64,000 nucleotides of DNA. Origin: Patescibacteria group bacterium (GTDB lineage: Bacteria > Patescibacteriota > Microgenomatia > UBA10105 > UBA927). How positions within the stretch are numbered: position 1 is the stretch's first letter; the number at the start of each line of letters is the position of its first letter. The position numbers were made by a program, and so were the translations under genes. The notes beneath the pieces were generated by a model. The model had not been told where the DNA came from. It worked only from the letters and a program-made list of their open reading frames with translations, and did not search any database. Location: contig JBMOPU010000012.1 of NCBI GenBank assembly GCA_049322955.1, positions 311,032 through 375,031 of the forward strand, read 5' to 3'. This document shows, in pieces, positions 3,750-59,559 of this stretch.

Positions 3750-6284
3750 ATGTCAGATAAGTATCCGCATGTCGAAATTGAGGCTAAATGGCAGAAGACC
3801 TGGAGTGATGAAAAAGTCTATACCATTGACCTTGCAAAGGCTAAAAAGCCGTTCTATAACCTCATGATGTTTCCGTATCCTTCTGCGGAAGGCTTGCATG
3901 TCGGCAATATGTATGCATTCACCGGGACTGATATATACGGACGTTTCATGCGCATGCAAGGGTATGATGTATTTGAGCCGATCGGTCTCGACGGCTTTGG
4001 TATCCATAGTGAGAATTATGCGTTTAAAGTAGGAAAACACCCGGTAGAACAAGCGAAACGCAGTGAACAGAACTTCTATCGTCAACTTTCGCTCATAGGG
4101 TCCATGTATGACTGGTCCCGAACGGTGGAGACGTATGATCCCGGATATTATCGGTGGACGCAGTGGTTGTTTGTCCAGATGTTTCGTCACGGACTCGCAT
4201 ATCGCGCAAAAGCGGAGGTGAATTGGTGCCCTTCGTGTAAAACGGTCTTGGCCGATGAACAGGTGATTGAAGAAAAATGCGAAAGATGCGGGAATATTGT
4301 CACAAAAAGAGCATTAGAACAGTGGTTTTTTAGAATTACCGCATATGCGGGAAAACTGCTGGAAAATATTTCGAAGCTAAAATGGTCAGAAAAAGTATTG
4401 GTTGCCCAAGAGCATTGGATCGGGAAAAAAGAGGGGATTAACATCACCTACCCCGTTGTGGACGAAAAAGGAAACAATATTGGCGAGGTTATATGTTTTA
4501 CTACAAGACCGGATACCAATTTTGGTGCCACATTCATCGTTTTGGCTCCCGAGCACCCCTTTATCAGTACCATTGAAAGAGTGATAAAAAAGGAAAATCT
4601 TGCTCTGTTGCGCCAATATATAAAAGAAACCCAAAAAATGTCTTCCGAGGATCGTATCGCGCAGGGGAGAAAAAAGACAGGAGTTGCTACGGGTTTGTAC
4701 TGTATTAATCAACTTACAGGACAAAAGGTTCCTCTTTATATCTCCGATTTCGTCGTGATGGGAGTGGGTACGGGGGCTGTTGTTGGTGTCCCGGGACATG
4801 ATCTCCGAGATTTTGAGTTTGCGCAATCCATGGGATTACCGGTTGTCCGTGTGGTTGTGGGTGCAGACGGAAATACAGGTCCCATTACGAAACCGGACCA
4901 GGTACAGGAGGATGAAGGTATCATGATTAACTCCGATTTTCTGGATGGGGTGGCGATAACAGAAGCCATCGAAAAGATGAAAGATCATTTAGAACAAAAA
5001 GGCTGGGGAAAGCGTGTCACTACGTATCATTTGCGAGATTGGCTCATCAGTCGTCAACGATATTGGGGTCCTCCCATACCGATGATCCGTTGCGGTACGT
5101 GTGAGAAGGCCGGCAAAGGAGAACGTGCCGACATGCCGGGCTGGTACACTGTTCCGGATGATCAGCTACCGGTGACGCTTCCCGTTATTGAAGATTATAA
5201 ACCGGGAGATGACGGGGTTGCTCCTCTTGCAAAACATAAGGAATTCTATGAAACTACCTGTCCCGGATGCGGAGGCAAAGCAACCAGAGAGACGGATGTT
5301 TCTGATACATTTTTAGATAGTTCGTGGTACTTTTTACGATATCCTTCCGTCGGTTCTTTGACGGCTGATACTAGTCCATTTGATCCCGCACTCACGAAAC
5401 AATGGCTACCGGTAAGCATGTACACCGGAGGAGCAGAGCATAGTGTTCTGCATCTTATGTACAGCAGATTTGTGACCATGGCGCTCAAGGAGTGGGGGTA
5501 TCTTGATTTTGATGAGCCGTTTCCAAACTTTTTTGCGCATGGACTGGTGATCAAAGAGGGCGCCAAGATGAGCAAAAGTAAAGGAAACGTCGTCAATCCC
5601 GATGAGTATATCAAACTATATGGAACAGATGCTCTGCGGATGTATCTTATGTTCATGGGACCCTTCTCCGAAGGAGGAGATTTTCGGGATACGGGGATGG
5701 AGGGGATGTCCCGATGGGTCGGAAGAGTTTGGCGCATGGCAACAGCCTCATTAGAATCTGGCACTGCCATTGATACGAGTGCTGTCGTACTGAAATCGCT
5801 TCATAAAACCATCAAGAAGGTAGGTGAGGATACCGCCAAAAGACATTACAATACGGCAATCGCGGCCATGATGGAGTTCACAAATTTGGTGAATGACCAT
5901 GGTGGCACTCTTCCTGTGCCGTTGCTAAAAATGTTTCTGCTTATTCTGGCGCCCTATGCGCCGCATCTTGCCGAGGAACTTTGGTCGCGTGCCGAGGCAG
6001 TTGAACACGGTGATGCAAAAGGGAACGCGTTCCGATCCATTCACCAACAGTCTTGGCCGGTTTTTGATCCGCAATATCTTACCGAAGAGAGTATTACCGT
6101 TGTGGTGCAGGTAAATGGCAAAACAAAAGGATCAATAGTGATTGATACGGAAAGTGCTAGTTTTCAAGAAAAAATTGAGGCCGCTGTCCGTGATTCGGCA
6201 AAAATGCGGAAGTATATTGAAGCGGGTGACATCCGTAAAATAATCTTTGTTCCCGGAAGGCTTATCAACTTTGTCCTCTCCTGA
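3750..6284 (+). CDS. leuS: Leucyl-tRNA synthetase
   Basis: Class I aaRS HIGH-type motif (HVGNMYAFTGTD), KMSKS motif (KMSKSKGNVV), and LeuS-typical WCPSCKTVLADEQV editing/zinc region. The MSDKYPHVEIEAKWQKTW start at ATG 3750 is in frame with the track ORF 3726..6284. Confidence 0.95.
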   Translation: MSDKYPHVEIEAKWQKTWSDEKVYTIDLAKAKKPFYNLMMFPYPSAEGLHVGNMYAFTGTDIYGRFMRMQGYDVFEPIGLDGFGIHSENYAFKVGKHPVEQAKRSEQNFYRQLSLIGSMYDWSRTVETYDPGYYRWTQWLFVQMFRHGLAYRAKAEVNWCPSCKTVLADEQVIEEKCERCGNIVTKRALEQWFFRITAYAGKLLENISKLKWSEKVLVAQEHWIGKKEGINITYPVVDEKGNNIGEVICFTTRPDTNFGATFIVLAPEHPFISTIERVIKKENLALLRQYIKETQKMSSEDRIAQGRKKTGVATGLYCINQLTGQKVPLYISDFVVMGVGTGAVVGVPGHDLRDFEFAQSMGLPVVRVVVGADGNTGPITKPDQVQEDEGIMINSDFLDGVAITEAIEKMKDHLEQKGWGKRVTTYHLRDWLISRQRYWGPPIPMIRCGTCEKAGKGERADMPGWYTVPDDQLPVTLPVIEDYKPGDDGVAPLAKHKEFYETTCPGCGGKATRETDVSDTFLDSSWYFLRYPSVGSLTADTSPFDPALTKQWLPVSMYTGGAEHSVLHLMYSRFVTMALKEWGYLDFDEPFPNFFAHGLVIKEGAKMSKSKGNVVNPDEYIKLYGTDALRMYLMFMGPFSEGGDFRDTGMEGMSRWVGRVWRMATASLESGTAIDTSAVVLKSLHKTIKKVGEDTAKRHYNTAIAAMMEFTNLVNDHGGTLPVPLLKMFLLILAPYAPHLAEELWSRAEAVEHGDAKGNAFRSIHQQSWPVFDPQYLTEESITVVVQVNGKTKGSIVIDTESASFQEKIEAAVRDSAKMRKYIEAGDIRKIIFVPGRLINFVLS

Positions 6285-35282: not shown

Positions 35283-38200
35283 ATGACTGAAATGGTATAC
35301 AATAGCGCTATGAGCAAGATCATCGCGCGTTGGCTTCGTGCGCATATCGGTTTGGTCTTTCTGGTCGGATTTCTTTTTTGGATCACCGTTACCGGTCTTC
35401 AGCCTGATTTCCTGCTTATCGGATGGGATAATTATTCTTCATATCTGGGTGGCACCGACGGGATTTTTCGTACGATTTTTTCTACCTGGCGTGCTTATCG
35501 GGGGATCGGAGTGCCGGGAGATAGTGAGAGTACTGACGCGGTGCGGCAGATTCTCCTTTTTGCGTTGACTCCCTTTGTCACGGAGCCCATGCGGGACCAG
35601 GTATATATCATGGCATGCTTATGGGTGGGCGTGCTCTCCCTCTATGTGCTTGTAAAGCGTTTGGCGGGTCGTTATATCGAGGCAAACGAAGGTGCGATAG
35701 ATATCGCGGCGGCCTTTTCCGGATTTATGTATGCCGCCAATCTCAACACTATATCCACATTCTATTTTCCGATAATTACGTACATCACGCGCTATGCATC
35801 GATACCCCTTCTTGTACTGGTGTTTGATAAGGTACTGCATGACCGACCGCTTGGGATACGGACAATTGCATTCTTTATTGGGGCGGTATTGTTTTCTGCG
35901 GGAAGCTTTATTACCGCTACGGTATTTTTTACGACCGGCATCCTATTAGGGCTGTATGTGCTATTTCAGGGTGCAGGCAGGCGCGGGTTCCTTTTGTTTT
36001 TTGTATTTGTCTGTCTTAATGCGTTTTGGCTCGTGCCCTTTGCCAACTATACACGGGAAAAATCAGCGAGCCTCAGGCTTGCACCGGTGTTTATTGACAC
36101 CAACGAAGCACAGCTGAACCAATCACCCCAATCGTACAGCCTGTGGAAACAGCTCATTTTGTATCCTAATTTTTTCTACACCCGTTATACAAGGGTGAGT
36201 GACGAACGGAGTGCTCCCTTATTTCCCCTCACGGAATATATTGATAGCGTTCAGGGGCAGACGGTTTTGGGCGTTTTTCCGGCGATAGCGCTTCTTGGGG
36301 TGGGGCTGATATTTCTTGCGAAGAGAAAGTATTACAGGATATTTTGGATTCCCGCAACATATTTGTTATTTATTATACTCTCATCGCAGGAACAATCCCC
36401 GTTGGGATTTATTCCCGCACTTTTAAACAAGATTCCTTACTTTAAGGTGGTATTCCGGTTCGGCGATACCAAGTTCCATCCGTATATCGCTTTTGCGGGG
36501 AGTTTAGCAGTCGGCGTCTTTACAGTGCTTACTCTTCGTGGCGTACGACATATTCGTCGGGCGGCAACCACTCTCTCTGCAGTGCTTGGGATATTTCTTG
36601 TGGTAGTCCCTCTGGTGTCGGTGTATCGCACGTATTTGACCGGGGATTTTCTTCCGAAATATCTGATGGTGCAGTTGCCGCAGGCATACCGCACTGCGGC
36701 AACACGTATCGACAACGATCCTGCAAACGGGCGAGTACTGCACTTGCCGTATGATCCTCAACTGTATTGGCGTTCGCATACCTGGGGATATATGGGCTCG
36801 GCATTTGTCCAATATATGCTCAAAAATCCGTATTTGGACAAAACATTTGAGCCGGCAAGTCTGGAAACAACCGGTATGTTTTTGGAATTGTCCTCGATCA
36901 TCCGGGATGCAAACCAAGTGGTGGGGGAAGCATTGGAAAAACGTGCGGATGCGCTTTTGGCGCATTTGATTCGTCACCGGATTTCCTGGGTCATGTTTGA
37001 TGAGTCGGTGAGTCCTGAAATGCGGATACGGAATATGCGCTATTGGGGGTCATTTAATACGACCGACTCGTCAATACTTCTCGAAACGCTTGCATCCGCC
37101 GGCAAGGTTACCCGTGCGGCGGAATACCCGATTGATCTCGAGCCGATTGCAAAAGAGTACACAAGACTCCTCGGACAGCAACCGCAAGGACCACTCGGGA
37201 AGCCACGATTGATTTTGTATCGCGTGAATGACAACATGACGACGGTAGAATTTACCGATAGCGCAGTTGCCGCCGTTCCTTCGACTGCGGGAGTGATCCC
37301 TGCCGCCAACAATGCGGTAACCCTCCAACCGAGTGTTGATTCTGATACATTATTATATCCATTGTTATACAAAGACTTAGTCGTGGAACCCCGTAAAGAG
37401 GGGATGCAATTGGCACATCCGACCGATTTTCTCTCCGCAGGAACCGGTAACATGCTGACGGTAGCGTCGGGGTCGGGTGCCGCGGTTGAAATCCGTATGA
37501 AGAAGGAAGGAGAAAACGCTCTTCTCACGTTTTACAAAATCGAAGCTCCGAATATCGGAGTCCGTTCATTTTCAACCCTTCTTACTGCCGTTCGTTTGCC
37601 GCTCCGGCTTCTCAGAGATGCTCTTGAGGTAGCGAATGATGCGGGGATGTATCTTTCAGACTGGCATATTCTCGGACATGACAGATTGAGCGATATCCGC
37701 CTCATGATCGGCGATGTCGTGCTTCCTGTGCCGGTATTGACGAGTGAGGAAGAGCAGGTAGTCGGATCGGTATATCTGCCGTCGTCCTCGGTAAATGTGA
37801 CGGTACTGCGCCGCAACAAGCAGGTTGCGATGAATTTGTCGGCATTGCATCTTACCGATATGCCGAATTGTTTCGGTGATCGAACCGGCGGGTATGAGTA
37901 TGAGGTGACGGGTACGCAATCAGGTCAGCTGACCCTGAGAAGTCAGAACGGATCTACCTGTCTTGTGTACCCCGTTTCCGACGGAAATGCAAAACACGTC
38001 GAAATCCGTTTGGAGTATCGTGCAAATCAGGTGAATGAAACCGTAGATAACCCCGGTGCAGTTCCCCAAGTGGCAAACTATGTGTCGCAATTGACGAAAC
38101 CGAACCTATTAAGCCTCTGTATCGGTGTACAAACAGGGGATATGTGTCTGAACAAACATCAGATCCTGTCGATGGGGAATGAAGGTACGGTAGTTATTCC

Positions 38201-39305
38201 CTCGGAAATAACCGGTCAGCAGTTCACTCATTTACGGATGGCAACGGTGCCCGTCGGCAAACAAACGCAGGAACTCACCCTTACCGGAGGGATGCTCTCG
38301 TATTTTGATGCGGTTAGGGTTTTTGCAGTGACGGTACCCCAACGGGCATACACTGCCGAGATTACACCGGCGGGTGATAATTTCCATGTCACCATTCCGC
38401 CGCTCCTTTCGTCGGGATCGTATTATCGAAGCGCCGCTGACGGTTGGTTTGTGTCCAATCGTCCCTGCGAGACGAGTGGCGGCTATCGGACGACGCGGCG
38501 ACTGTCGGGTGGCATGCTGAGTTATATCGCTGATTGCTACAATGAATTTTCACTCCAATTGCCGTTTAACAGCGCATCGGCAAAATTATGGTCGGTTTCG
38601 TACGCACTCTTTTCAGGAAAGTATCCGTTATTCATGCTTGGCGACCCGTTCGGGCATTACGTGAACCAGTACCTTTCGTTGTATCAGGGATACCCGGAGG
38701 TGCCGGGAATGCTTTCGCTCCAGGCACCACAGCAATGGTACCGACCCTATGCCGGGGATACCGTGCAGAGCATCGTACGCGGAACGATTCCTGCTCAGGC
38801 GTATGTTTTGGTTCCTGCCGTACCCGAACTTACCGATACTCGTGCCAAATCCTATACGATCCATCAGGATAGCAAAAATACGGGGATGGTGGGGTTATAT
38901 GACACCCGCATTACGGAGTTTCCCGCTTCGTGGCACCACATGGCGGTGCAACGAGGAAATCCGGAGAAGACGTATGCGGTGCCGGGTTCCGTTACATCCC
39001 GCGATATCTTGCCGTCTTTGACCGAAGTGACTCTCGCGAAGGGTACCAATGCAGATAACTCCTTTTTATTGGTACAGCGTTCGGGATTTGACCGACAATG
39101 GGCCGCGTACAGAGATGTATGGTCCCTCATCGTTGATAGCAACGCGATCCGTCCCGTCCGATGCGGGGGTACCTTTAACTGTTATGCGCTTCCGTCAGAT
39201 AGCGGCCGATGGTACCTGTTTTATACCCCGGAACGTTTGGCAATCATCGGCTGGCTTGTCACCATTTTGAGCGCCGCCATTTTTGCATACAAGTGGCGCA
39301 GATAG
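35283..39305 (+). CDS. Giant polytopic membrane protein with a large extracytoplasmic C-terminal domain (GT-C-like glycosyltransferase candidate)
   Basis: About 12 predicted TM helices in the first ~450 aa, an ~850-aa soluble region, and a final C-terminal TM (IIGWLVTILSAAIFAY); the architecture resembles GT-C/YfhO/ArnT-type transferases. Confidence 0.65.
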   Translation: MTEMVYNSAMSKIIARWLRAHIGLVFLVGFLFWITVTGLQPDFLLIGWDNYSSYLGGTDGIFRTIFSTWRAYRGIGVPGDSESTDAVRQILLFALTPFVTEPMRDQVYIMACLWVGVLSLYVLVKRLAGRYIEANEGAIDIAAAFSGFMYAANLNTISTFYFPIITYITRYASIPLLVLVFDKVLHDRPLGIRTIAFFIGAVLFSAGSFITATVFFTTGILLGLYVLFQGAGRRGFLLFFVFVCLNAFWLVPFANYTREKSASLRLAPVFIDTNEAQLNQSPQSYSLWKQLILYPNFFYTRYTRVSDERSAPLFPLTEYIDSVQGQTVLGVFPAIALLGVGLIFLAKRKYYRIFWIPATYLLFIILSSQEQSPLGFIPALLNKIPYFKVVFRFGDTKFHPYIAFAGSLAVGVFTVLTLRGVRHIRRAATTLSAVLGIFLVVVPLVSVYRTYLTGDFLPKYLMVQLPQAYRTAATRIDNDPANGRVLHLPYDPQLYWRSHTWGYMGSAFVQYMLKNPYLDKTFEPASLETTGMFLELSSIIRDANQVVGEALEKRADALLAHLIRHRISWVMFDESVSPEMRIRNMRYWGSFNTTDSSILLETLASAGKVTRAAEYPIDLEPIAKEYTRLLGQQPQGPLGKPRLILYRVNDNMTTVEFTDSAVAAVPSTAGVIPAANNAVTLQPSVDSDTLLYPLLYKDLVVEPRKEGMQLAHPTDFLSAGTGNMLTVASGSGAAVEIRMKKEGENALLTFYKIEAPNIGVRSFSTLLTAVRLPLRLLRDALEVANDAGMYLSDWHILGHDRLSDIRLMIGDVVLPVPVLTSEEEQVVGSVYLPSSSVNVTVLRRNKQVAMNLSALHLTDMPNCFGDRTGGYEYEVTGTQSGQLTLRSQNGSTCLVYPVSDGNAKHVEIRLEYRANQVNETVDNPGAVPQVANYVSQLTKPNLLSLCIGVQTGDMCLNKHQILSMGNEGTVVIPSEITGQQFTHLRMATVPVGKQTQELTLTGGMLSYFDAVRVFAVTVPQRAYTAEITPAGDNFHVTIPPLLSSGSYYRSAADGWFVSNRPCETSGGYRTTRRLSGGMLSYIADCYNEFSLQLPFNSASAKLWSVSYALFSGKYPLFMLGDPFGHYVNQYLSLYQGYPEVPGMLSLQAPQQWYRPYAGDTVQSIVRGTIPAQAYVLVPAVPELTDTRAKSYTIHQDSKNTGMVGLYDTRITEFPASWHHMAVQRGNPEKTYAVPGSVTSRDILPSLTEVTLAKGTNADNSFLLVQRSGFDRQWAAYRDVWSLIVDSNAIRPVRCGGTFNCYALPSDSGRWYLFYTPERLAIIGWLVTILSAAIFAYKWRR

Positions 39306-45590: not shown

Positions 45591-46253
45591 TCAGGGCCGA
45601 ATAGCTCCTTTTGCAAGAATCCCAAACCCAATGATAGCCAAAGCGATAAAGGGGAGCATATATGCGTAGTCTTCAAATCCCGCGACCGGAAGGGTGGTGG
45701 CACCCAATACTTTGGTTTGGACACACAAGCTGGACGTATCTTCATCAGATCGATTTTCCGGTGCCGTGACCGTAACCTTGTTAACCACATCACAGGTAAG
45801 ATCCTGAGGGAATACCGAGATATCCTTCACCTTCACTAGAATTCGGTTATGTACGGTGGCACCCGCCTTGAGATCAGAGATTTCATACGTAAGCTTGTGT
45901 GCACTTGCCTCATATCGTCCGGGACCTGAGACAAACAAGACCTGAGACGGTAAAAAGTCAATGATGGTCACCGTCGCATAGTCAGTGGTACTGGTATTGG
46001 TAACGGCGATGTCGTACTCCACTTCACTGTTGGGTGAATACGCGGCATCGTAGGCCGTCAGATTTTCAACAAACAGATTAACATTGGTGGGGTATCGCAC
46101 CTTTTTATTGATAACAACGTTGTTTGTCGGACATTCTACCGAGGTTCCGTATTGGTTCGTGCAGTTTTCGCCGTCATAGGCATGTACGGCGGGCACAAGG
46201 AGCGCCATGGCGCCGAGAAGCGAAACAAGTGCGATAGTGTGTTTTGATTTCAT
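45591..46253 (-). CDS. Surface protein with DUF11-like domain and C-terminal sortase-type sorting signal
   Basis: Signal peptide MKSKHTIALVSLLGAMALLVPAVHA; DUF11-like block DIAVTNTSTTDYATVTIIDFLPSQVLFVSGPG; C-terminal LPVAG + hydrophobic stretch + KGAIRP tail. Confidence 0.65.
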   Translation of the reverse strand: MKSKHTIALVSLLGAMALLVPAVHAYDGENCTNQYGTSVECPTNNVVINKKVRYPTNVNLFVENLTAYDAAYSPNSEVEYDIAVTNTSTTDYATVTIIDFLPSQVLFVSGPGRYEASAHKLTYEISDLKAGATVHNRILVKVKDISVFPQDLTCDVVNKVTVTAPENRSDEDTSSLCVQTKVLGATTLPVAGFEDYAYMLPFIALAIIGFGILAKGAIRP

Positions 46254-47111: not shown

Positions 47112-47993
47112 TTAAATCGCCTCATTTTGTTCTTCCACCAAGTCAGCAAAAATCAGCAAACGCTCGGTAGTGGAGCCAGGAGGCCAACAGGTCTGTAAAA
47201 TGAGGCGTTTTTGGCCTGCCTGAGGAGCAAGATAGGATACTTCGGTGGGACTTACCACCTGCTTGCCGGTGATTTCATACCGATAGGAAGAGCCCTTGTA
47301 ATAGATAAGGATCGTATCCTTTACCTCAAGATTCTTCAAAAGGTAAAACACGGCATTCAAATCACCCACAAACCAGTCGTAATTGGTGGAGTGAGAAAAA
47401 AGATACACCGTACCCTCTTCGTCGGGGAAGTACGAGAGGGAAGAGTGGGCGATTCCTTTTTGGAGTGCGGCCAGATATTCGCCCGGTTTGGTGGGATTGA
47501 CCGCAGGAATAACCCCGGCGTTAATGCCCACCTTCGGCACGATCAGCGAAAAGTCTTTGTTGACGGGATCGATTGAAGCGCCTTCGGGCGTTTTGAGCGG
47601 GTCAAACGCCGCGGGAACTGCGGGTTTTTGGGTCGTTTCGGTAGCTATCTGCGTTCGGTCGGTCGGGAGCCATGTTCGAACGACGGAAATTACCCCGTCG
47701 AGATGCTGTACCAAGGCTTTCTGATAGGTTGGTAACGTTCGTTGTACCTGAAGTGCGGCATATCTTGCCTCAAGTCGAATACGCGGCGTTAAGGGGCCCG
47801 TAAGACCTCCCAGGGCAAGTGCAAGCATGCCGATACCGAGGGTGGTTACCCATGAGTGATTTGTCGTGTTTTTCGGTACGGCAACGGGCGACGGCGTACG
47901 ACGCAGTTTTGTGGTCGTTCGGGCGGGAGTAAGCACCGGAATACCGGGTCGGTAGTCCCAGTCGTGATAGTAGATGATGCCTGATGTTTGCAT
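47112..47993 (-). CDS. Sortase (class E/F-like transpeptidase)
   Basis: N-terminal TM; catalytic motifs LFSHSTNYDW (His), RLILQTCWPPGST (TLxTC Cys), conserved Arg downstream. Confidence 0.8.
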   Translation of the reverse strand: MQTSGIIYYHDWDYRPGIPVLTPARTTTKLRRTPSPVAVPKNTTNHSWVTTLGIGMLALALGGLTGPLTPRIRLEARYAALQVQRTLPTYQKALVQHLDGVISVVRTWLPTDRTQIATETTQKPAVPAAFDPLKTPEGASIDPVNKDFSLIVPKVGINAGVIPAVNPTKPGEYLAALQKGIAHSSLSYFPDEEGTVYLFSHSTNYDWFVGDLNAVFYLLKNLEVKDTILIYYKGSSYRYEITGKQVVSPTEVSYLAPQAGQKRLILQTCWPPGSTTERLLIFADLVEEQNEAI

Positions 47994-51379: not shown

Positions 51380-54300
51380 TTATGACGATTGTTTTTTGGC
51401 AAACGTTACCTGAAGTTTGTCGCCGACCACATCGATACGGCTTGCTTTCCACTTTTGGTCGATACGACCGTCAAGATGGGTCAATACTAAGTCGTTAAAG
51501 TGATCCAAGCTTTCATGAATGGTTTTTTGCCATGGGCGCGCGAGCATAGGCAGATGAATATTCAGGCTGTCTTTTTGCACCACGAGACCCTTTGCGGGAT
51601 CGGTTGCGAGGGTACCGCTAAACTTTGCCTCTCCCACGATCGTTTTTGCCTTCATATCGGCAAGTTTGACCGTGTCGCCTTCGATCATGATTTTTCCTTC
51701 GGTAATTCTGGCACCGGGAAGCTCCACCGAAGTTTTGACGTAATCCATGAGTTCTCCCGGAGTCAATGCTACTCCTGCGGCATTTTCTCCCGATTTATTT
51801 AACACATAGTTGATGCGGTCTTCGACGCCGCTCGGGAGTTGCTCCGGTGCGGGGGTGGGTTGTTCGGCGGTAACGGGTGTTTCAATAACAGGCGTTTCCT
51901 CGATCGGGAGTGATGATGCAACCGCTTCTGCAGATTTCTCCGATTGTTGTATATTTGCGGTTTCCTGCATGGTAGGTGTTTCAGATTGAACCGTGTTTTC
52001 TGCGGCGGCAATCCCCGTTGTTGTTGGTGCTTCTTCAATGACCGGTTGCTCAACCGGTTGTTCTCCCGCAAGCGTCGTTAGCTCATCTCTTGGTGTTTCC
52101 GGAACCGGTTGGGTTGCCTCAACGATTTTCGGTGCGGCTTCTTTGGCAAATGCCTCGACATCAGTGAGTGCCCGCATATTTGCTTCCAGCATGTTCATGT
52201 CAGTTATTATGACCTGTCCGTCGGTGATTTCATAGGATATCCCCAAGGTATCCATCGTTCGCTTAAAGTAGGCATCAAACCGTTCGGGATTGGTGGTTTT
52301 CAGCGTGGGATACATATTGGCGTACATGTTGGAAAGATGCGTCTGTAACTGATCCTTTGAATAGGTTTCACTTGCCCGTTTTGCCATATCTTCCCAGGTC
52401 ATATCTTTATAAACCTCATTTGTCTGATACGGAGTCTCGGGATCAGCACTTCCAAGCTGTTGCAAATGCGCGTAGACGGTTTCGGTTGGATCGATGGTGG
52501 CCGTCATGGTAGGTAGTACCGTGGTGGTATCGCTACTGCCGCGCGCCGTATGAATCATCCATGCCATCTCACGATCCTCCGCAATCCTGGTGTCGGGGTT
52601 ATATCCGCCGACGGCCGCGAGACTTCCCGCTTTTGTGGCAATATTACCGCTATAAACCCCCGGAACACCTGCGGTATCCCCATGGCGAACCAGACTATCC
52701 ATCAATTCAAATGCCCGATGCTGGGCAAAAAGAAGCGGGAACTCTTCATAGGCTTTTTGGGGAAGCTCATAACTTCCGCTCACCATATCCAGTGACGGAT
52801 TCTGATCAAATGCATCTACGGCACTTGCGATATACGTCTCGGCGATGGTGTTGCCTGTGCCGTTATCGGCGATGACGGCAACATCGGAAGCATCGGTGGG
52901 AAGTGTTGCGATACGGGACAGGGCAACATTTGTTACATCCCGTTTCACCCGACCTGACGTGGGTGCTTCCTGATAGGAATGGGTAAGATATAAGACGCGC
53001 ATTTCCGGATGGTCTGCGATAAACCTCGTAACTTCCGATTTTGTATCGCCGGGAAGCGTCTCACTGACGGTGCCGTCGGGGGAGGCGACGTGCGCGTCAA
53101 AGACGATAAATTCCGTTTTTTCAGGAGCAAGCGGCGTGCCGTCGGTTGCCTTTTGTCCGACATACCGTGATAAGCGCTGGTAAATATTGCCGCCTGCCTG
53201 TGATACGGGAATCGTCACCACTGCGCGAACATCGGGGTTCATCGGGGGTAAGTCACCCGTCAGTAATTGTTCGACTGTAGTAATTTCGTCGGGAGTGAGC
53301 GTCGAAAGATACCAGGCCACTTCTTCCTGCTGGTGTAATGTTGCCTGCGGATTTTCCGTAAGCCGCGGGGATTTTCGGGTTTCCATGGATTCCCGGGTCA
53401 CATAGGAACTTTCCATACCGAATGGGCTTAAAAGCGTCTCGCCCGGTTTCATTTTTGCTTCGATAATTTCTCCGGTAGCCGCTTCGAGTACTTCACGATA
53501 CGGGATAAATACGGGGTACCAAGGTGCCTCCGGTGCCCCCGCTTCGCGGGCAATAGTAGTTACCGTCTCGGTAACGGGAACGGTGAGTTCTTTGGCAAAA
53601 ATTTGTCCCGGTTGATCTTCTCCGTAGACATAATTCAGCGTAAGCTGGTGAATCGGCACCGATGTTTCTGCCGCCGAAGGCACGACCGTATGAACGGTCT
53701 GCTCTGCATTACTCGCGCCGAGTTTCTCAAGAAGCGGAGCGAGTTCCTGTTGGGTAGGAAGGTCGCTATCCCGTCCGAAATAGCCCATGCGCAGTAACAA
53801 CGCTTCCACCTTATCGTCCTGTGATCCCGTTTCCAGCGTATGAAGCGCTTCCATCGGGGCTTTGCCGCTTTCGATGAGCGATTGGTAATGCGTGATTGCC
53901 GCATCATTCATTTCGCTGATGTGTTTTATGGCATCCGCGCTAAACAGTTCCCGCGGTACGTGAATGGTGGCATCCTGAGGAATCCTGGCCAAATCCAATT
54001 CCTGTACCTGGGTGTCGCCGAAGGTTGCCGGTCGCAGATGTTCGTTTATGTAGTTTTCGTGACTGCCCTCCGGAACCGTAATATTGGCGTTATGCTCGTT
54101 ATAGGTGTACAGGCGAAACATGTTTTTAACGCTGTTTGCCGTAGCGATTCTGTTATCACCCTCCGCTTGGTTTAAGAAATGATCCCATAATCCGCCTTCC
54201 TTGAGGTTGGACGCTTTGATGTCGATCATGGGCCCCGTCGGGGAGCTCGTCTCAACAAATGGTGCCGTCGTATTCGATTCAAGCGCAACCGTGTGATGGA

Positions 54301-57199
54301 GCGGTGTGGTTATCTCATACCCCTGTTTGGCCAGATCTGCTTTCAAATTGGCAATATCGACGGGTTGCCCCAGTAATTCTCCCTTATCGGAAATATTAAC
54401 GGTGGCGATCACGTGATCTTTGGTATCGAGAATTTGCCAGTTATGTGCGCTTTCAATGTATTTCATGTCATAGCCGTCAGGAAGCGATGCCGTGATCGGT
54501 GTGCCGTTTGGCGCGGTAAGATGAGGGATCTGCACCACATCGTGAGCACTGGTGATAACCTCTCCCGCTTTGTGCGGCTCGGAGACCGTCATCCCCAGTT
54601 TTTCCAGCGTCGACTTGAGCTGTTCGTCAGTGAGATTTGTGCCGATGACATGATCCGATTGCCCGTTAACGTTTTCGGCAAGAGAAAGATCAATTTTCGC
54701 GTCATACAATGTTTGTCCGTTCTCGACGTGCTGAGTAAGCGTTAGCTCTTTCGGAATCTGGTACGTCGCATGATCTAAGGTAACGGTGTGTTCCGCCGTC
54801 GGCGTGGAAAGCGGAATCTTGGCGACGTGTTCTGTTGTTTCCGTGGTTGCGTGCACCTCGCCCAAACTGCCTAATGCGTGTAATGTGCCGCCGATGGCCG
54901 CGCCTATGACGCCCGCTTTGACGCCGTATTTAACGGCCTCAATGCGCGCCTCGCTTTTGAACTCCTCCATAATCGCATCAAGCCCCATGGCTTTCTGTTC
55001 GTCGGTGAGCGATGCTCCCGCAAAAGGCCAACGTCGCTTTATGATTGCCGCCTCCGGTGCATACGATGCCACAAGATTGAGCGTCGCTTTAATCGGATCG
55101 TCCTGTGATTCCAGCGCGTTCACTCCTTCACGAAGTATCTGCGTTTGACCGGTGGTCAGTTTGACCATGAAATCGGGGAATGCATTGCCTCCGAGTACTC
55201 CCTCCGCCTGTTCGGCATGACCGGATAAATAGGTTTCGAGGTCTCCTAACGCTTTGTTTGCGGTGATATCGAGTGCCGCCCGTTCACTTTCGATAGCCTC
55301 CCTATTTGAAAATCGGATGAGACCGACACGTTTTGGACCCGTTTCACTGACCGCTTTTCTTGCGTGGAGATCAGCCACGGTCGCAAACGCACTGCGGAGT
55401 TCATCGTCCGTCAGGGTCGCTTTGATCTGATCGCCGTCGTATAGAGTGGACTTGAGCGTCGTTATCATTTCGGATGCAGAGCGTTGTTGTACGGCAAATT
55501 TTTCAAACCATGCGCGTTTCTTCTGTGCTTCGGTAAATGTCGCTCCCGATTCCTTTTCACGAAGGTGAGTCAAATAGTCACGGTGCAATTGTCCGTATTC
55601 GCGCCATCCGGCAAATGCTCCTCCCGCGGCGCTTCCCGTAAGAAGTGCCAACGGTCCCACTCGAAACGGCATGGTTTTGACAAAGTTAAGTGCTGAAAGT
55701 GCGATAGCGACGCCCGAACCGATGGTCGCTTCGTTAAAGACCAGGGGAACCAAGACATGCTTCTTATTCAGCCAATCTGCTATTTCGCGAATCTGTCCGA
55801 CGCCTTTTTCGACGGCGGTCGGTTCCATGCTCGTGACTTCTCCCATGGCGCCCAGTCCCAGCCGGATTTGCATGCTATCTATCGCCTCGTCCAAATTGGC
55901 GAGTCCGCCTTCGTGAGACATCTTTGTGCGGAGGGTTTCTGCCGCATCAAAAAGACTCGAACTATATAGTTCTGCTTCAGCAAAAATATCAGGGCGGGTA
56001 TTTTTTAGCGTCGCATTGAAGAATTCTTTTGCTCGTTTGTCGAATTCTTCTTTGGTCGTAATGCCGCCGCTTGCGTACTCTTTGAGTAACGATTGTATGC
56101 CGGAAACAAGGGGAGCATGATCGGCGTTTTCCGGGTCCAATATCTCCAATTTTTCGCCGAGTTGCTTTCTGATAAACTGATCCGCCTTTTCCATGTCGGC
56201 ACCGAATCGCATGCGTACCGCTTTGGCTTCCCGTTCAAATGTTTCCCGGCCTTTGATTTCTCCGGCGGCTTTCATGGCGCCCATTTCTTCAAGTGCCATT
56301 GTTTGTACTGCGGTTCGCATCCCTAACTTGTCTTTCAGCCAGTCCACCGCACGGGTTCCCGCGCGAACAAGGAAGTTGGAATCGGCGAGTTTTTTATCGT
56401 ATGCGGCTTTGGCTCTCGCTTCTGCGAGACGGATCGCGTCTTCGGCAAACGGTGTTTCGGCCGCAATCAGGAGATCATGGTAATATTGCCGGGCTTTTTC
56501 ATGGAAATAAATACCCCCGACGGATTGTTTCCAGATAGTGGTAAAGATCAGTTCATGGAGCCCGTGCACGGAATCCTTGGTTTTTTCCCATAACGTTTTC
56601 GTCGCATCCGCGTGTTCTTGCGAACGGGGAGTGACCATTTTTTGCATGCTCCGGTCGGCAAGATCAACCGCGCGTGTTTCGTAGGCCTTAAGACCCACGA
56701 TCGTTATCGTGTTGGGATCTTCGGTAAGGCTCTCTAACACGTTTCTTGCCTCTTTTGTGGGCAATACGGGGGGAGTTTCCGGAAGGGTAAGTTTGGGTTC
56801 GGGTGCTATCGGTTCGACCGCTTGTTCTCCCGGTACTTCCGCAAAAGGTGTTAAGGATAGCTCGCTTTTGCCGATGACATGATTGGCGCCCGTTTCATCG
56901 GTCCATTGGAGACCGGAAATTTTATCCCACGATACTTCGTCAAAATCGTTGAGATTCGTAAGCGGCTTATCGACCATGAGCCCTTCTTCACCCTTTTTGC
57001 GACTTGCTTCCGAAACAAGCGGCACGATGCTTCCTACGCCGTCATTGGCGCGCTTTTCAGCCGGCAGAACGGTCACCGAGGTGATCTCCTGTTCACCGAT
57101 CTTAACGGGAGTGGCAAGATGAATCGGCGTTTCTCCCACGATGACCGACTGCGGGAGCAGTGTTTCCGGATGCGGTTGTTGAGGAATCGGTTCGGTCAT
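51380..57199 (-). CDS. Giant (1939 aa) hypothetical membrane-associated protein
   Basis: Single continuous ORF; hydrophobic segments near residues ~480-560 and ~790-820 (ATIGSGVAIALSALNF; VKAGVIGAAIGGTLHALG); the remainder is charged/Ala-rich helical; a weak GT-A-like ...GGYNPDTRIAEDREMAWMI block near the C-terminal third; last gene of a co-directional operon. Confidence 0.7.
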   Translation of the reverse strand: MTEPIPQQPHPETLLPQSVIVGETPIHLATPVKIGEQEITSVTVLPAEKRANDGVGSIVPLVSEASRKKGEEGLMVDKPLTNLNDFDEVSWDKISGLQWTDETGANHVIGKSELSLTPFAEVPGEQAVEPIAPEPKLTLPETPPVLPTKEARNVLESLTEDPNTITIVGLKAYETRAVDLADRSMQKMVTPRSQEHADATKTLWEKTKDSVHGLHELIFTTIWKQSVGGIYFHEKARQYYHDLLIAAETPFAEDAIRLAEARAKAAYDKKLADSNFLVRAGTRAVDWLKDKLGMRTAVQTMALEEMGAMKAAGEIKGRETFEREAKAVRMRFGADMEKADQFIRKQLGEKLEILDPENADHAPLVSGIQSLLKEYASGGITTKEEFDKRAKEFFNATLKNTRPDIFAEAELYSSSLFDAAETLRTKMSHEGGLANLDEAIDSMQIRLGLGAMGEVTSMEPTAVEKGVGQIREIADWLNKKHVLVPLVFNEATIGSGVAIALSALNFVKTMPFRVGPLALLTGSAAGGAFAGWREYGQLHRDYLTHLREKESGATFTEAQKKRAWFEKFAVQQRSASEMITTLKSTLYDGDQIKATLTDDELRSAFATVADLHARKAVSETGPKRVGLIRFSNREAIESERAALDITANKALGDLETYLSGHAEQAEGVLGGNAFPDFMVKLTTGQTQILREGVNALESQDDPIKATLNLVASYAPEAAIIKRRWPFAGASLTDEQKAMGLDAIMEEFKSEARIEAVKYGVKAGVIGAAIGGTLHALGSLGEVHATTETTEHVAKIPLSTPTAEHTVTLDHATYQIPKELTLTQHVENGQTLYDAKIDLSLAENVNGQSDHVIGTNLTDEQLKSTLEKLGMTVSEPHKAGEVITSAHDVVQIPHLTAPNGTPITASLPDGYDMKYIESAHNWQILDTKDHVIATVNISDKGELLGQPVDIANLKADLAKQGYEITTPLHHTVALESNTTAPFVETSSPTGPMIDIKASNLKEGGLWDHFLNQAEGDNRIATANSVKNMFRLYTYNEHNANITVPEGSHENYINEHLRPATFGDTQVQELDLARIPQDATIHVPRELFSADAIKHISEMNDAAITHYQSLIESGKAPMEALHTLETGSQDDKVEALLLRMGYFGRDSDLPTQQELAPLLEKLGASNAEQTVHTVVPSAAETSVPIHQLTLNYVYGEDQPGQIFAKELTVPVTETVTTIAREAGAPEAPWYPVFIPYREVLEAATGEIIEAKMKPGETLLSPFGMESSYVTRESMETRKSPRLTENPQATLHQQEEVAWYLSTLTPDEITTVEQLLTGDLPPMNPDVRAVVTIPVSQAGGNIYQRLSRYVGQKATDGTPLAPEKTEFIVFDAHVASPDGTVSETLPGDTKSEVTRFIADHPEMRVLYLTHSYQEAPTSGRVKRDVTNVALSRIATLPTDASDVAVIADNGTGNTIAETYIASAVDAFDQNPSLDMVSGSYELPQKAYEEFPLLFAQHRAFELMDSLVRHGDTAGVPGVYSGNIATKAGSLAAVGGYNPDTRIAEDREMAWMIHTARGSSDTTTVLPTMTATIDPTETVYAHLQQLGSADPETPYQTNEVYKDMTWEDMAKRASETYSKDQLQTHLSNMYANMYPTLKTTNPERFDAYFKRTMDTLGISYEITDGQVIITDMNMLEANMRALTDVEAFAKEAAPKIVEATQPVPETPRDELTTLAGEQPVEQPVIEEAPTTTGIAAAENTVQSETPTMQETANIQQSEKSAEAVASSLPIEETPVIETPVTAEQPTPAPEQLPSGVEDRINYVLNKSGENAAGVALTPGELMDYVKTSVELPGARITEGKIMIEGDTVKLADMKAKTIVGEAKFSGTLATDPAKGLVVQKDSLNIHLPMLARPWQKTIHESLDHFNDLVLTHLDGRIDQKWKASRIDVVGDKLQVTFAKKQSS

Positions 57200-57200
57200 A

Positions 57201-57683
57201 TCAGTTCGATGAATCTTCCGCTCCTAAATACAGGGAACGAAAATCGGCAAAAATCTGGGCAACCAGGATATCGGGTTCCTTGACGTAGGTATTGATAAAC
57301 GTTTGCACCTGTTCCGGCGCGGGATTTGTTTTAATCAGATCGGAAAGCTTACCTACTGCCGTAGGATCAGCCGCACTTACCATCTCAATCGTCCGAAGGG
57401 TTAGATATTGATTCAATCTGTCGGTAAGTTCCCGTTTAATATCGGCATGCGTGGCGTCATCCAGAGGCGTGGCGGCAAATTTTTTGGCAATAAGTTCATC
57501 CACAAAGGATTCCATGGCAGAGGAAGAAACATCCATATAACCACAGTAGGTGACCGTGAGTATGGTGTCAAGGAGGCCACTACTATAAAGGAAGAGGTCA
57601 AAAAACATCAAAAAGAATCTGGTCGGGGAGAGATTGATATAGTCTTTTGGTTCACGGACAATATGCCGTTTATTTGCCGGCAC
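57201..57683 (-). CDS. Hypothetical protein (operon with giant protein)
   Basis: 160-aa ORF; its stop is 1 nt from the start of the giant gene. Confidence 0.45.
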   Translation of the reverse strand: MPANKRHIVREPKDYINLSPTRFFLMFFDLFLYSSGLLDTILTVTYCGYMDVSSSAMESFVDELIAKKFAATPLDDATHADIKRELTDRLNQYLTLRTIEMVSAADPTAVGKLSDLIKTNPAPEQVQTFINTYVKEPDILVAQIFADFRSLYLGAEDSSN

Positions 57684-58098
57684 GCTTCTTCACCGCGTTC
57701 CAAACGCGTGTCGGGGTTACCGTAAGTTTTTCAAGGTCCTCCTCGGATGTCTGAAAGATGGTAAATGTCCGGAGCAGTTTGAGTGCCCGTTTATGGAGCG
57801 GTTGGTGGGTTTCACCTTTTGTCCGAACGTGCGTGAGGGGGATCACCACCCGTTTTGCCCCCTTAGCGATTGCATGCGCCGCGCCGAACGGAATGCATGC
57901 ATCCGCATCCGCACCGTGAAGAACGACGATCGCGTTGTCCACATCCCGCATGGCGGTATGGTACGCGGGATCATGGACGTCCTGTGCCACGTACCAGCCG
58001 TCCTGCTCGCAGGACCTCGCATGTTGGTCCTGATCGGCAAACTCACCCTTGCCGATGAACAATCTGGTCACGCGTGTTTCTTTTCGGTATCCGCTCAT
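57670..58098 (-). CDS. Hypothetical protein, possibly nucleoside 2-deoxyribosyltransferase-like (Rossmann-like) fold
   Basis: DVDNAIVVLHGADADACIPFGAAHAIAKGAKRVVIPL is weakly reminiscent of NDT/YtoQ-like proteins. Confidence 0.4.
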   Translation of the reverse strand: MSGYRKETRVTRLFIGKGEFADQDQHARSCEQDGWYVAQDVHDPAYHTAMRDVDNAIVVLHGADADACIPFGAAHAIAKGAKRVVIPLTHVRTKGETHQPLHKRALKLLRTFTIFQTSEEDLEKLTVTPTRVWNAVKKRAGK

Positions 58099-58149
58099 AG
58101 GTGAAGAAAACTACATCCTAATACACTGTATTATATCAATCTGGTGTGG

Positions 58150-58593
58150 TTAGGAGGATGATGAAGCGGATTTCGTGGACTTGGATGTGCCGGTCCATAC
58201 TAATTTGACATTCCCCGTAATCACCCGGTCCGCAAGCTCTTGCGCCGCTTTATACTGACCGTTTTTTATAAGATTGCTTACCTGGGCAATCGCCGGCTTT
58301 GTGACGCCTTCCTCGTAATCACGAAGGTAGGGGACGATAATATGCGAAATCTCGGAAAAATTATCATCAAGGTGCGGTAAGGTTTTGTAAATCTCCTCAA
58401 GCGACATGCCGGGTTTTAGCCGATCAAGCACAAGTTGGGCAAGAGCCTGTGCACGATCTTCCGTCATTTCCTCGGCTTCCACTTTGGATTTAATAAGATC
58501 CACGATATCCGCCTCTATTTGTTCGCGAATGTCATCAGGAGACATAGATTTTTTTGTCGTTCCGGCCTGCGAGCCGGAATCCATTGATGTCAA
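58150..58593 (-). CDS. Hypothetical acidic protein
   Basis: 147-aa ORF, same operon. Confidence 0.4.
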   Translation of the reverse strand: MTSMDSGSQAGTTKKSMSPDDIREQIEADIVDLIKSKVEAEEMTEDRAQALAQLVLDRLKPGMSLEEIYKTLPHLDDNFSEISHIIVPYLRDYEEGVTKPAIAQVSNLIKNGQYKAAQELADRVITGNVKLVWTGTSKSTKSASSSS

Positions 58594-58668
58594 TCAGTGG
58601 AAGGCGGGGCAAGCGAGAAATTATGATACAGACTCTTGATTTTAGTATCTGTTATTTCGAAACCCGGA

Positions 58669-59559
58669 TCAAGTGGGAGTGGCCGGAGGCGGCGTATCCT
58701 GCTGACGGCTTAACCCGTATCGCTCGGCCGTTGATCTGCCTTGGTGCGAAGGATAGGCAGGCTGGAAATTAGTGATGAGTTGTTCAATTGCCTGCGGGAC
58801 GGCGCCGTACAGAATGCGCAACCGCTCCTCATGGGTGAGGTGTCCCCAAGTTTTGTACTCATGGACGAGGGTCGGCGGCTCGTCGGGGTTCGTTTGGATA
58901 TAGGTACGAAGCGGCGATTCAGTATCAAAAAGTTCGACCGTATCGTTGACGAACGATATACCGCTTGCGGATCTTAAGACGGAATCCGGGCCGTGGCGGC
59001 GGACAAATTCCTGGACGTCCTGGATGGTGAACGGTTTCATTTTGACGGCGGTGCGTACCAGCACTGTGGTCGGGTGCACCGTCGGATCCGTCATATCGAT
59101 GGCGGTAAGCGCGGTACAAAGCTCGGTATTTTTGCCCGACAGTCCCATGGCCCCGTTGACCCGATCGGACATCCACTGAGCGATATTTTTCGGTTTTTCA
59201 TTAACGACCGCGGTATCGTCAAAAATATCTTTGTCATAGGTGATGTTGATGGTGTCGGAATAAATACGGATGATACGGTCGCCTTCCGTGTGGACGTCTC
59301 CCGCATGTCCGGTTTCGACGGTGCCGTTTATGTAGCTTCGGACCATGAGGGCGGAGATATCCTGCATGGCTTTTCGTTCCGCCATTTCAAGCGGCCATTC
59401 GGCAACATTCATATTGACGGGTTTTCTGATGATGTCTTCGGTAAAGTGGGGTAACACTTGGTGCACCCTGTCCGCACCTAATAGGGATGCAAAAGCGTTG
59501 GTGCGTGCCGGTGATGAGGTGACGATATGAAAATGAATTGGTCTCTCTGTGTTTGTCAT
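58669..59559 (-). CDS. Maf-like (Maf/Ham1 nucleotide pyrophosphatase superfamily) protein with C-terminal extension
   Basis: N-terminal IVTSSPARTNAFASLLG aligns with Maf lvLASGSPRRrELL; downstream DT...KP...LSGK...H.V.T pattern matches; about 100 extra C-terminal residues. Confidence 0.55.
   Translation of the reverse strand: MTNTERPIHFHIVTSSPARTNAFASLLGADRVHQVLPHFTEDIIRKPVNMNVAEWPLEMAERKAMQDISALMVRSYINGTVETGHAGDVHTEGDRIIRIYSDTINITYDKDIFDDTAVVNEKPKNIAQWMSDRVNGAMGLSGKNTELCTALTAIDMTDPTVHPTTVLVRTAVKMKPFTIQDVQEFVRRHGPDSVLRSASGISFVNDTVELFDTESPLRTYIQTNPDEPPTLVHEYKTWGHLTHEERLRILYGAVPQAIEQLITNFQPAYPSHQGRSTAERYGLSRQQDTPPPATPT

Follow-up and report, generated by a model that had tools for sequence, protein, structure and literature searches.

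Two of the described families closest to the proteins reported here concern a large protein and its small neighbour. The GT-A glycosyltransferases of family GT2, such as PcManGT, BcsA, the hyaluronan and chitin synthases and GtrB, share the fold of one C-terminal module, and the Pfam family DUF5663 (PF18908), which is without described function, resembles a small upstream partner. The locus compared with them lies on the minus strand at positions 51380–59559 of a 64,000-nt stretch of contig JBMOPU010000012.1 from a Patescibacteria group bacterium. This whole stretch is referred to as the window; coordinates are positions within it, and features are on the minus strand unless stated otherwise. 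The locus encodes a protein of 1939 amino acids, designated as the giant protein, and directly upstream a 111-aa helical protein that is a divergent member of DUF5663. Genomes of the candidate phyla radiation (CPR) are approximately 1 Mb in size, and a conserved gene of 5.8 kb is therefore a notable share of such a genome. The original prediction described the locus as a giant protein with small ORFans and nucleotide-handling enzymes. Comparative genomics replaces this vague description with a defined unit, consisting of the DUF5663 partner and a helical core in the giant protein, on which the conserved residues can be mapped. We tentatively favour the explanation that the two genes form a cassette in which the core is membrane-associated and presents a GT-A module for glycosylation or assembly of the envelope.

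The 111-aa gene and the giant gene

Five co-directional open reading frames (ORFs) are present on the minus strand, as originally described, and the ORF of 1939 aa (51380..57199, ATG start, stop codon included) is a real gene with homologues along its full length. Two of the smaller ORFs had been over-extended. The "160-aa" ORF is a gene of 111 aa (57201..57536), since all 18 orthologues begin with MD or MS, and the "147-aa" ORF is a gene of 131 aa (58150..58545), with 17 of 17 orthologues beginning with MSPDD. The DNA in the frame 5' of the methionine of the 111-aa gene is conserved, yet it lacks a start codon in several loci. With these two starts corrected, the intergenic gaps are approximately 123, 51, 133, and 1 nt rather than the 1–80 nt claimed before. 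The GC content of the region is about 50% and gives no foreign signature.

The proteins of the window were compared with 25 related loci by tblastn, and the called genes of each locus were inspected. The 111-aa gene was located upstream of the giant gene in every Gottesmanbacteria-type locus covering that region. The gene context of five distant relatives that share only the core of the giant protein was also examined. A gene of 102–110 aa was found 2–25 nt upstream of the core-bearing gene in all five, and it carries PF18908 in four of them, while the other neighbours are unrelated. Because the pair is kept both in the Gottesmanbacteria-type loci and in these five relatives with unrelated neighbours, we regard the two genes as a cassette.

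The 111-aa protein of the window gave no direct Pfam match in hmmscan. Its family profile was aligned by hhalign to the PF18908-bearing protein of locus L026 with a probability of 97.7% (E = 1.6e-12) and to the 110-aa protein of locus L027 with a probability of 99%. Like annotated DUF5663 proteins, it is approximately 100–110 aa long and all-helical, has a conserved C-terminal "DF..LY.G" motif and is encoded directly upstream of a homologous large protein; unlike them, it falls below Pfam significance when searched alone. None of the papers in the library that was searched names DUF5663, and nothing relevant on giant glycosyltransferases of CPR bacteria was returned. The pairing of the core with DUF5663, which extends from Gottesmanbacteria to Paceibacterota, is undescribed and has no known function.

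A DNA alignment of 20 loci indicated cross-clade conservation of about 110 nt ahead of the 111-aa gene, corresponding to a non-coding block at 57537..57645 in the window. Within this block, TTGACA (57571–57566) is followed by 17 nt, TACTGT (57548–57543), 6 nt, and the ATG. The pattern TTGAC-N16-18-[TC]AnnnT-N3-10-ATG, ending at the start codon, was present in 17 of the 20 loci and in 0.15% of shuffles. A consensus scan reported only TTGATG-18-TATAGT at 57611–57582; the TTGACA/TACTGT pair was missed because its −10 element is weak by consensus. The short distance between the −10 element and the ATG suggests a very short leader or a leaderless mRNA for the 111-aa gene. Rfam matched nothing in the window, which places the conserved leader outside the known RNA families. 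The promoter-like block, together with the 1-nt gap between the stop codon of the 111-aa gene and the ATG of the giant gene, suggests that the two genes would be transcribed from their own conserved promoter as a translationally coupled unit.

Several sequence variations were observed in and around this block. Further upstream, also in loci L001–L025, it contains ACTATATCA and TATAGT motifs with reverse-complementary cores approximately 45 nt apart, which could be an operator pair. The promoter block is replaced in L007 (~3750–3850) and L020 (~5440–5540) by a long inverted repeat, CCAGGTAGTAGAAATTTCGAC ... GTCGAAATTTCACTACCTGG, that stops exactly at the start codon of the 111-aa gene and may be a small mobile palindromic element. 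L016 has an insertion of about 80 nt between the TTGACA/−10 block and this start codon (~5560–5655).

The helical core of the giant protein

A search of 5.8 billion clustered proteins yielded 66 homologues of the giant protein with 32–88% identity, most of them full-length (1,700–2,140 aa). None of the 66 is named, and no Pfam domain was found in them except an FkbM methyltransferase in one. Scanning one genome per GTDB species gave 19 giant loci, labelled Candidatus Gottesmanbacteria or Patescibacteria group bacterium, which bears out the earlier attribution to CPR bacteria. Several records of one series of metagenome-assembled genomes are labelled "uncultured Gammaproteobacteria". We take this for a mislabel, because the giant proteins and the flanking genes in these records are orthologous to those of Gottesmanbacteria. 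Whole-length and family-profile searches with the giant protein found nothing among PDB sequences. Matches to adhesin, RHS, polymorphic toxin, or defence families were sought in Pfam, NCBIfam, PADLOC, and PHROGs and by PDB profile search, and none was obtained; a role as a defence system was rejected on the negative PADLOC search. A match to a known adhesin, RHS, or toxin family had been named with the original prediction as a refuting result, and its reading of the locus as a cell-surface or host-interaction system is a possible one. A second large ORF in the window (1340 aa, 35283–39305, plus strand) is unrelated to the giant protein by BLASTP.

The profile of giant residues 1–800 was searched against 1.84 billion representative sequences and matched 604 clusters at E ≤ 1e-3, 417 at E ≤ 1e-10, and 71 at E ≤ 1e-30. 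Outside the family of the giant protein, the match is limited to profile positions ~315–705 and falls, in most cases, close to the N-terminus of proteins of 1,000–3,100 aa, one of which is labelled Candidatus Paceibacterota. From occupancy and conservation in an alignment of 123 distant members, the core was delimited to residues ~330–660 (55220..56212). Its strongly conserved residues include Gly348-Glu349, Tyr375, Asn489-Glu490, Glu534 (95%), His545, Arg547, and Gly552 (96%), followed by Arg562 (94%), Arg614 (94%), Leu627 (94%), and Glu639 and Arg640 (95%). Asn489 and Glu490, each 81% conserved in the distant members, lie inside the first hydrophobic helix, which is part of a Gly/Ala-rich, weakly hydrophobic helical hairpin within the core (residues 482–532, 55604..55756).

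The giant protein was modelled with AlphaFold2 (AF2) in two parts, residues 1–800 and 781–1939. The N-terminal model is poor, with a mean predicted local distance difference test score (pLDDT) of 56, and consists of long helices except for a confident beta domain at residues 16–120. Foldseek found no match below E 0.05 with this model. As a result, the fold of the core could not be assigned; the core also has no match in Pfam or among PDB sequences.

Most of the distant core-bearing proteins have no Pfam match at all. Among the others, one carries GT9, FHA, and PP2C/SpoIIE modules in its C-terminal part, and another carries a weak GT2 and DUF362. Together with the giant family, the enzymes and domains found in core-bearing proteins are GT2-like, GT9, FkbM methyltransferase, DUF362, and FHA/PP2C. 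This variety of C-terminal modules argues that the core behaves as a platform for different modules, mostly of cytoplasmic type.

The GT-A element described below and the Maf-like gene further upstream are of known kinds, and the part of the locus that is possibly new is the core as a machine in its own right. In this more far-reaching proposal, which we consider possible yet doubtful, the DUF5663 protein and residues 330–660 would be an undescribed two-component membrane machine. Its conserved polar residues, the Asn-Glu of the hydrophobic hairpin and several nearly invariant Arg and Glu, would themselves carry out a reaction or a transport step. Enzymes that differ between lineages would be added to this machine, which would be central to the CPR envelope or to interaction with the host cell. 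Were the pair such a machine, a function would be gained for a Pfam DUF and several hundred unnamed large proteins, as would a handle on how CPR organisms build or decorate their envelope. If the giant protein is merely an anchored glycosyltransferase, the gain is a modest improvement in annotation.

The GT-A domain

The AF2 model of residues 781–1939 is good (mean pLDDT 75). Along the chain, beta-rich units and a helical domain precede the GT-A domain, which a disordered linker separates from a C-terminal alpha/beta domain. The original prediction had noted a faint resemblance to GT-A glycosyltransferases around GGYNPDTRIAEDREMAWMI, and this block does sit in a GT-A fold. The GT2-like domain and its helical extension span residues ~1320–1700 (52100..53242), with pLDDT values mostly of 80–94 in the GT-A domain. 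The top Foldseek matches in the PDB are all of GT2 type, with E values from 2e-9 to 1e-4: PcManGT (6yv7, E = 2e-9) is followed by BcsA, hyaluronan synthases, the chondroitin polymerase K4CP, WrtF, chitin synthases, and GtrB. No Pfam glycosyltransferase match was obtained for the giant protein of the window, and the NCBIfam match to EpsD (E = 0.0036) reached 16.8 bits against a cut-off of 370 bits. Two relatives match Pfam GT2 and GT21 weakly (E ~0.01), below the gathering scores.

The viral structure library BFVD also gave GT2-type matches only. This bears on the idea of a prophage remnant, in which the giant would be a tape-measure-like helical protein preceded by chaperone-like small genes. 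The resemblance lies in the long helical protein, the Gly-rich hydrophobic segments and the small helical proteins encoded upstream. None of the five proteins has a PHROG match at E ≤ 0.01, no capsid, tail, or integrase genes are found nearby, and the housekeeping synteny is stable across genomes. The idea was rejected after the PHROGs and BFVD searches, and we consider it scarcely credible.

The giant protein shares with GT2 enzymes the fold, a first strand of the "VVTIP" type, an acidic residue after strand 4 and an "xED" motif. Unlike in those enzymes, the GT-A domain is embedded in a protein of 1939 aa, and the second Asp of the DXD motif, the QxxRW motif, a multi-span channel, and a Pfam GT2 match are all lacking. 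In an alignment of 30 sequences, the DXD equivalent after beta-4 is Asp1445-Asn1446-Gly1447 (52859..52867), and no intact DXD motif was found in the window protein. The position reads [DE]x[GSA] in 21 of 22 window-clade sequences, the remaining one having no acidic residue, and DAD in all eight sequences of the distant clade, so that the metal-binding motif of the module differs between clades. Glu1541-Asp1542 of the "AED" motif (52574..52579) occupies what is taken to be the position of the GT2 catalytic base. The second position of "xED" is acidic in 30 of 30 sequences (Asp in 25 and Glu in 5). Because the DXD motif reads D-N-G, glycosyl transfer by the domain is uncertain in the window clade.

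The degenerate motif could also be read as the sign of a non-catalytic scaffold. The giant would then be a structural or organising protein of the envelope or the division site, and its GT-A domain would, in the window clade, either be a pseudoenzyme or serve to bind sugars. The degeneration of DXD in the window clade, including the loss of its acidic residues in one sequence, while the distant clade keeps DAD, is in line with such a role, as are some 600 residues of conserved long helices and the FHA and PP2C signalling modules of the relatives. On the other side, acidic residues are still conserved both at the site of the catalytic base and at the first position of DXD, which argues for retained chemistry. 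The neighbouring Maf-like gene would, on this reading, faintly recall the maf-mre-min arrangement of Bacillus; this is an analogy only, and beyond one subclade the Maf-like gene does not accompany the giant gene. A non-catalytic role appears unlikely to us.

Possible membrane association and role

The two hydrophobic stretches of the original prediction are present, at residues ~482–532 and ~755–779; they are marginal and may or may not span the membrane. The maxima of the Kyte–Doolittle (KD) profile over 19 residues are 1.62 at residue 482 and 1.3 at residue 762. The first stretch is the hairpin of the core, across which the AF2 pLDDT is below 50. The second is a third hydrophobic, Gly-rich helix (residues 755–779, 54863..54937), in which Gly759, Gly763, and Gly770 are invariant across the giant family. 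Among 124 scored sequences (the window protein and 123 relatives), 38 have no segment reaching a KD value of 1.5, and many distant relatives have a clearer hydrophobic helix 220–280 residues after the equivalent of Asn489. Membrane association of the giant protein is plausible from these profiles.

An envelope-related role gains modest support from the recurrence of envelope genes downstream. A sortase gene (47112–47993) and a gene for a DUF11/CLIPPER protein (45591–46253) lie downstream of the giant gene and are kept in nearly all related loci, including those of the distant clade. GT2 or GT1 genes are found in the downstream neighbourhood of four loci, and in the Paceibacterota locus L026 the neighbours include BacA, a GT2-GtrA gene, and two genes of the VTT/DedA type.

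In the mechanism that we propose, the core, probably bound by its DUF5663 partner, would hold the giant protein at the cytoplasmic membrane. The GT-A module would then act on, or at least bind, a nucleotide-sugar or an envelope acceptor, and the giant protein would serve as a platform for envelope glycosylation or assembly. In the relatives, this core would serve in the same way to place other modules at the C-terminus.

Several points weigh against this proposal. No result points to an acceptor or a donor, and with a D-N-G sequence at a DXD position that is degenerate throughout the clade, glycosyl transfer may be lost or altered. The hydrophobic segments are marginal in hydropathy and in model confidence. 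Were the third helix a true transmembrane segment, it would put the GT-A domain outside the cell and away from nucleotide-sugars. For the core, no relative of known function was detected in Pfam, among PDB sequences or in the fold search made with its low-confidence model. Finally, the synteny with the sortase and DUF11 genes could be phylogenetic inertia within one lineage.

The same architecture might instead be that of an exported or host-directed effector. The core would then serve in trafficking or membrane insertion, with the small upstream protein or proteins as chaperone or adaptor and the variable C-terminal enzymes as payload. The CPR lineage, whose cultivated members live as episymbionts, is in accordance with this, as are the differing C-terminal modules on a conserved core, the one or two small helical proteins encoded directly upstream and the hydrophobic helical hairpin within a helical domain. 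The architecture is reminiscent of LXG toxin/Lap systems and of the large clostridial glycosylating toxins in three respects: the small helical upstream partners, the conserved helical N-terminal part with variable C-terminal enzymes, and the combination of a GT-A domain with a hydrophobic helical region. These are analogies of architecture only, and neither sequence nor fold similarity to the toxins was detected; compared with the clostridial toxins, the domain order of the giant protein is reversed. Moreover, no immunity-like or secretion-system gene is adjacent, and PADLOC and PHROGs gave no match. In all related genomes the gene keeps the same place among housekeeping genes and is conserved along its whole length, and FHA and PP2C, present in its relatives, are domains typical of signalling in the cytoplasm. 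An effector function is, in our judgement, quite improbable.

Other parts of the giant protein

Conservation in the giant family is highest at residues 1–120 and 160–760 and lowest at 780–1000 and 1700–1800. The N-terminal beta-rich domain (residues 16–120, 56840..57154) has eight strands with pLDDT values of 75–87 and is conserved family-wide; no significant fold match was found for it. It is followed by a Pro-rich variable linker (residues ~121–150). A variable beta-rich region (residues ~785–1000, 54200..54847; pLDDT 80–90) contains two small beta-alpha-beta units, LTDEQLKSTLEKLGMTV and LKADLAKQGYEIT. This region is the least conserved folded part of the protein, and its matches to B5, LEM, and PASTA domains are only faint. 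The linker after the GT-A domain (residues ~1700–1787) is disordered and Pro/Glu/Thr-rich, with pLDDT values below 50. It leads to the C-terminal alpha/beta domain (residues 1788–1939, 51383..51838; pLDDT 77–88), which is missing in the distant clade, with an FkbM methyltransferase instead in L023/P0062.

Neighbouring genes

The Maf-like, 124-aa, and 142-aa genes upstream of the pair are neighbours of decreasing conservation and not obligatory components. The description of the small ORFs as three ORFans was not confirmed: two of them (those of the 111-aa and the 131-aa protein) are conserved families, and the 142-aa ORF has only three homologues.

The 131-aa helical protein (58150..58545) is about 124 aa long in most orthologues, and the mean column identity of 17 aligned orthologues is 71%. 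No Pfam family was found for it. It has 373 homologues of the same length, all unnamed. At least 24 among those listed come from contigs equal in length to contigs with giant hits, which we take as rough evidence of co-occurrence. Most loci have the gene, and so do members of the distant clade; in some loci, further genes separate it from the 111-aa gene. It was not observed beside the five distant core relatives. It is a lineage-level accessory that is co-distributed with the giant gene only within the lineage.

The 142-aa ORF (57670..58098) lies outside the conserved unit and has no tblastn match in any of the 25 related loci. Compared with the closest relative, L006, whose giant protein is 88% identical, it takes up about 500 bp that are cleanly inserted between the 124-aa gene and the conserved upstream block. 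Its GC content is 56.6% as against 46–47% in its small neighbours. Its three homologues, found among 5.8 billion clustered sequences, have no Pfam domain and no name other than "hypothetical protein". Since it is a strain-specific insertion without a counterpart in the relatives, the ORF is not part of the system. The proposed similarity to deoxyribosyltransferases was not recovered in Pfam, NCBIfam, PADLOC, or PHROGs. The interval between the Maf-like and 111-aa genes is a hotspot of lineage-specific insertions, which comprise a 682-aa gene in L003 (5000–7048), a 224-aa gene on the opposite strand in L001 (6821–7495) and the 142-aa ORF of the window.

The first gene (58669..59559, 296 aa) is Maf-like as predicted: a 62%-identical orthologue in L008 passes the gathering score of PF02545 (30.5 bits against a cut-off of 27 bits, E = 3.4e-7, residues 14–200). 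The orthologue in L016 scores 18.8 bits. The window protein itself has no Pfam match and only a sub-threshold NCBIfam match to PRK14365 (E = 0.048). Ser15, Ser16, Arg19, Glu41, Lys63, Asp102, and Lys122 are invariant in 12 orthologues, with their equivalence to Maf residues judged by eye only. The motif order S-S-x-x-R, E, K-A, S-D-T, K-P, also judged by eye, would fit that of Maf/YhdE (PF02545). The window protein differs from Maf by an insertion following the K-A motif and by some 80 additional residues at the C-terminus. The family profile did not align with the canonical Maf proteins of related genomes and found nothing relevant among PDB sequences.

Orthologues of the Maf-like gene are present in 15 window-clade loci and missing in the distant clade (L018–L025). 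A 293-aa gene at the corresponding position in L023 was considered as a candidate and dropped, as it is only 20% identical and not a homologue. Two distant-clade loci have a canonical Maf gene a few kb upstream, beside NDK. In the window-clade loci, NDK and two adenylate-kinase-like genes are nearby, and the window itself has one such kinase-like gene. With its absence from the distant clade and its NDK and kinase-like neighbours, the Maf-like gene looks like part of a housekeeping neighbourhood and not like a partner of the giant gene.

These observations bear on the initial proposal of a single five-gene operon in which nucleotide-handling enzymes (Maf-like and deoxyribosyltransferase-like) work with a giant surface protein. 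The five ORFs are indeed co-directional, no intrinsic terminator was predicted between them, and the first gene is Maf-like. Comparative genomics largely refutes the proposed coupling, since a conserved promoter-like block lies inside the would-be operon, the 142-aa ORF is strain-specific and without a family, the distant clade lacks the Maf-like gene, and the distant relatives of the giant protein keep only the DUF5663 gene. Such an operon is very improbable, and the two-gene cassette is retained as our tentative explanation.

At the start of the window (1 to ~2250), a collagen-like (Gly-X-Y)n frame on the minus strand continues uninterrupted for more than 750 aa and runs off the window start. 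This region has a GC content of 67%, compared with approximately 50% elsewhere, and is full of tandem repeats of 9, 18, 45, and 135 nt.

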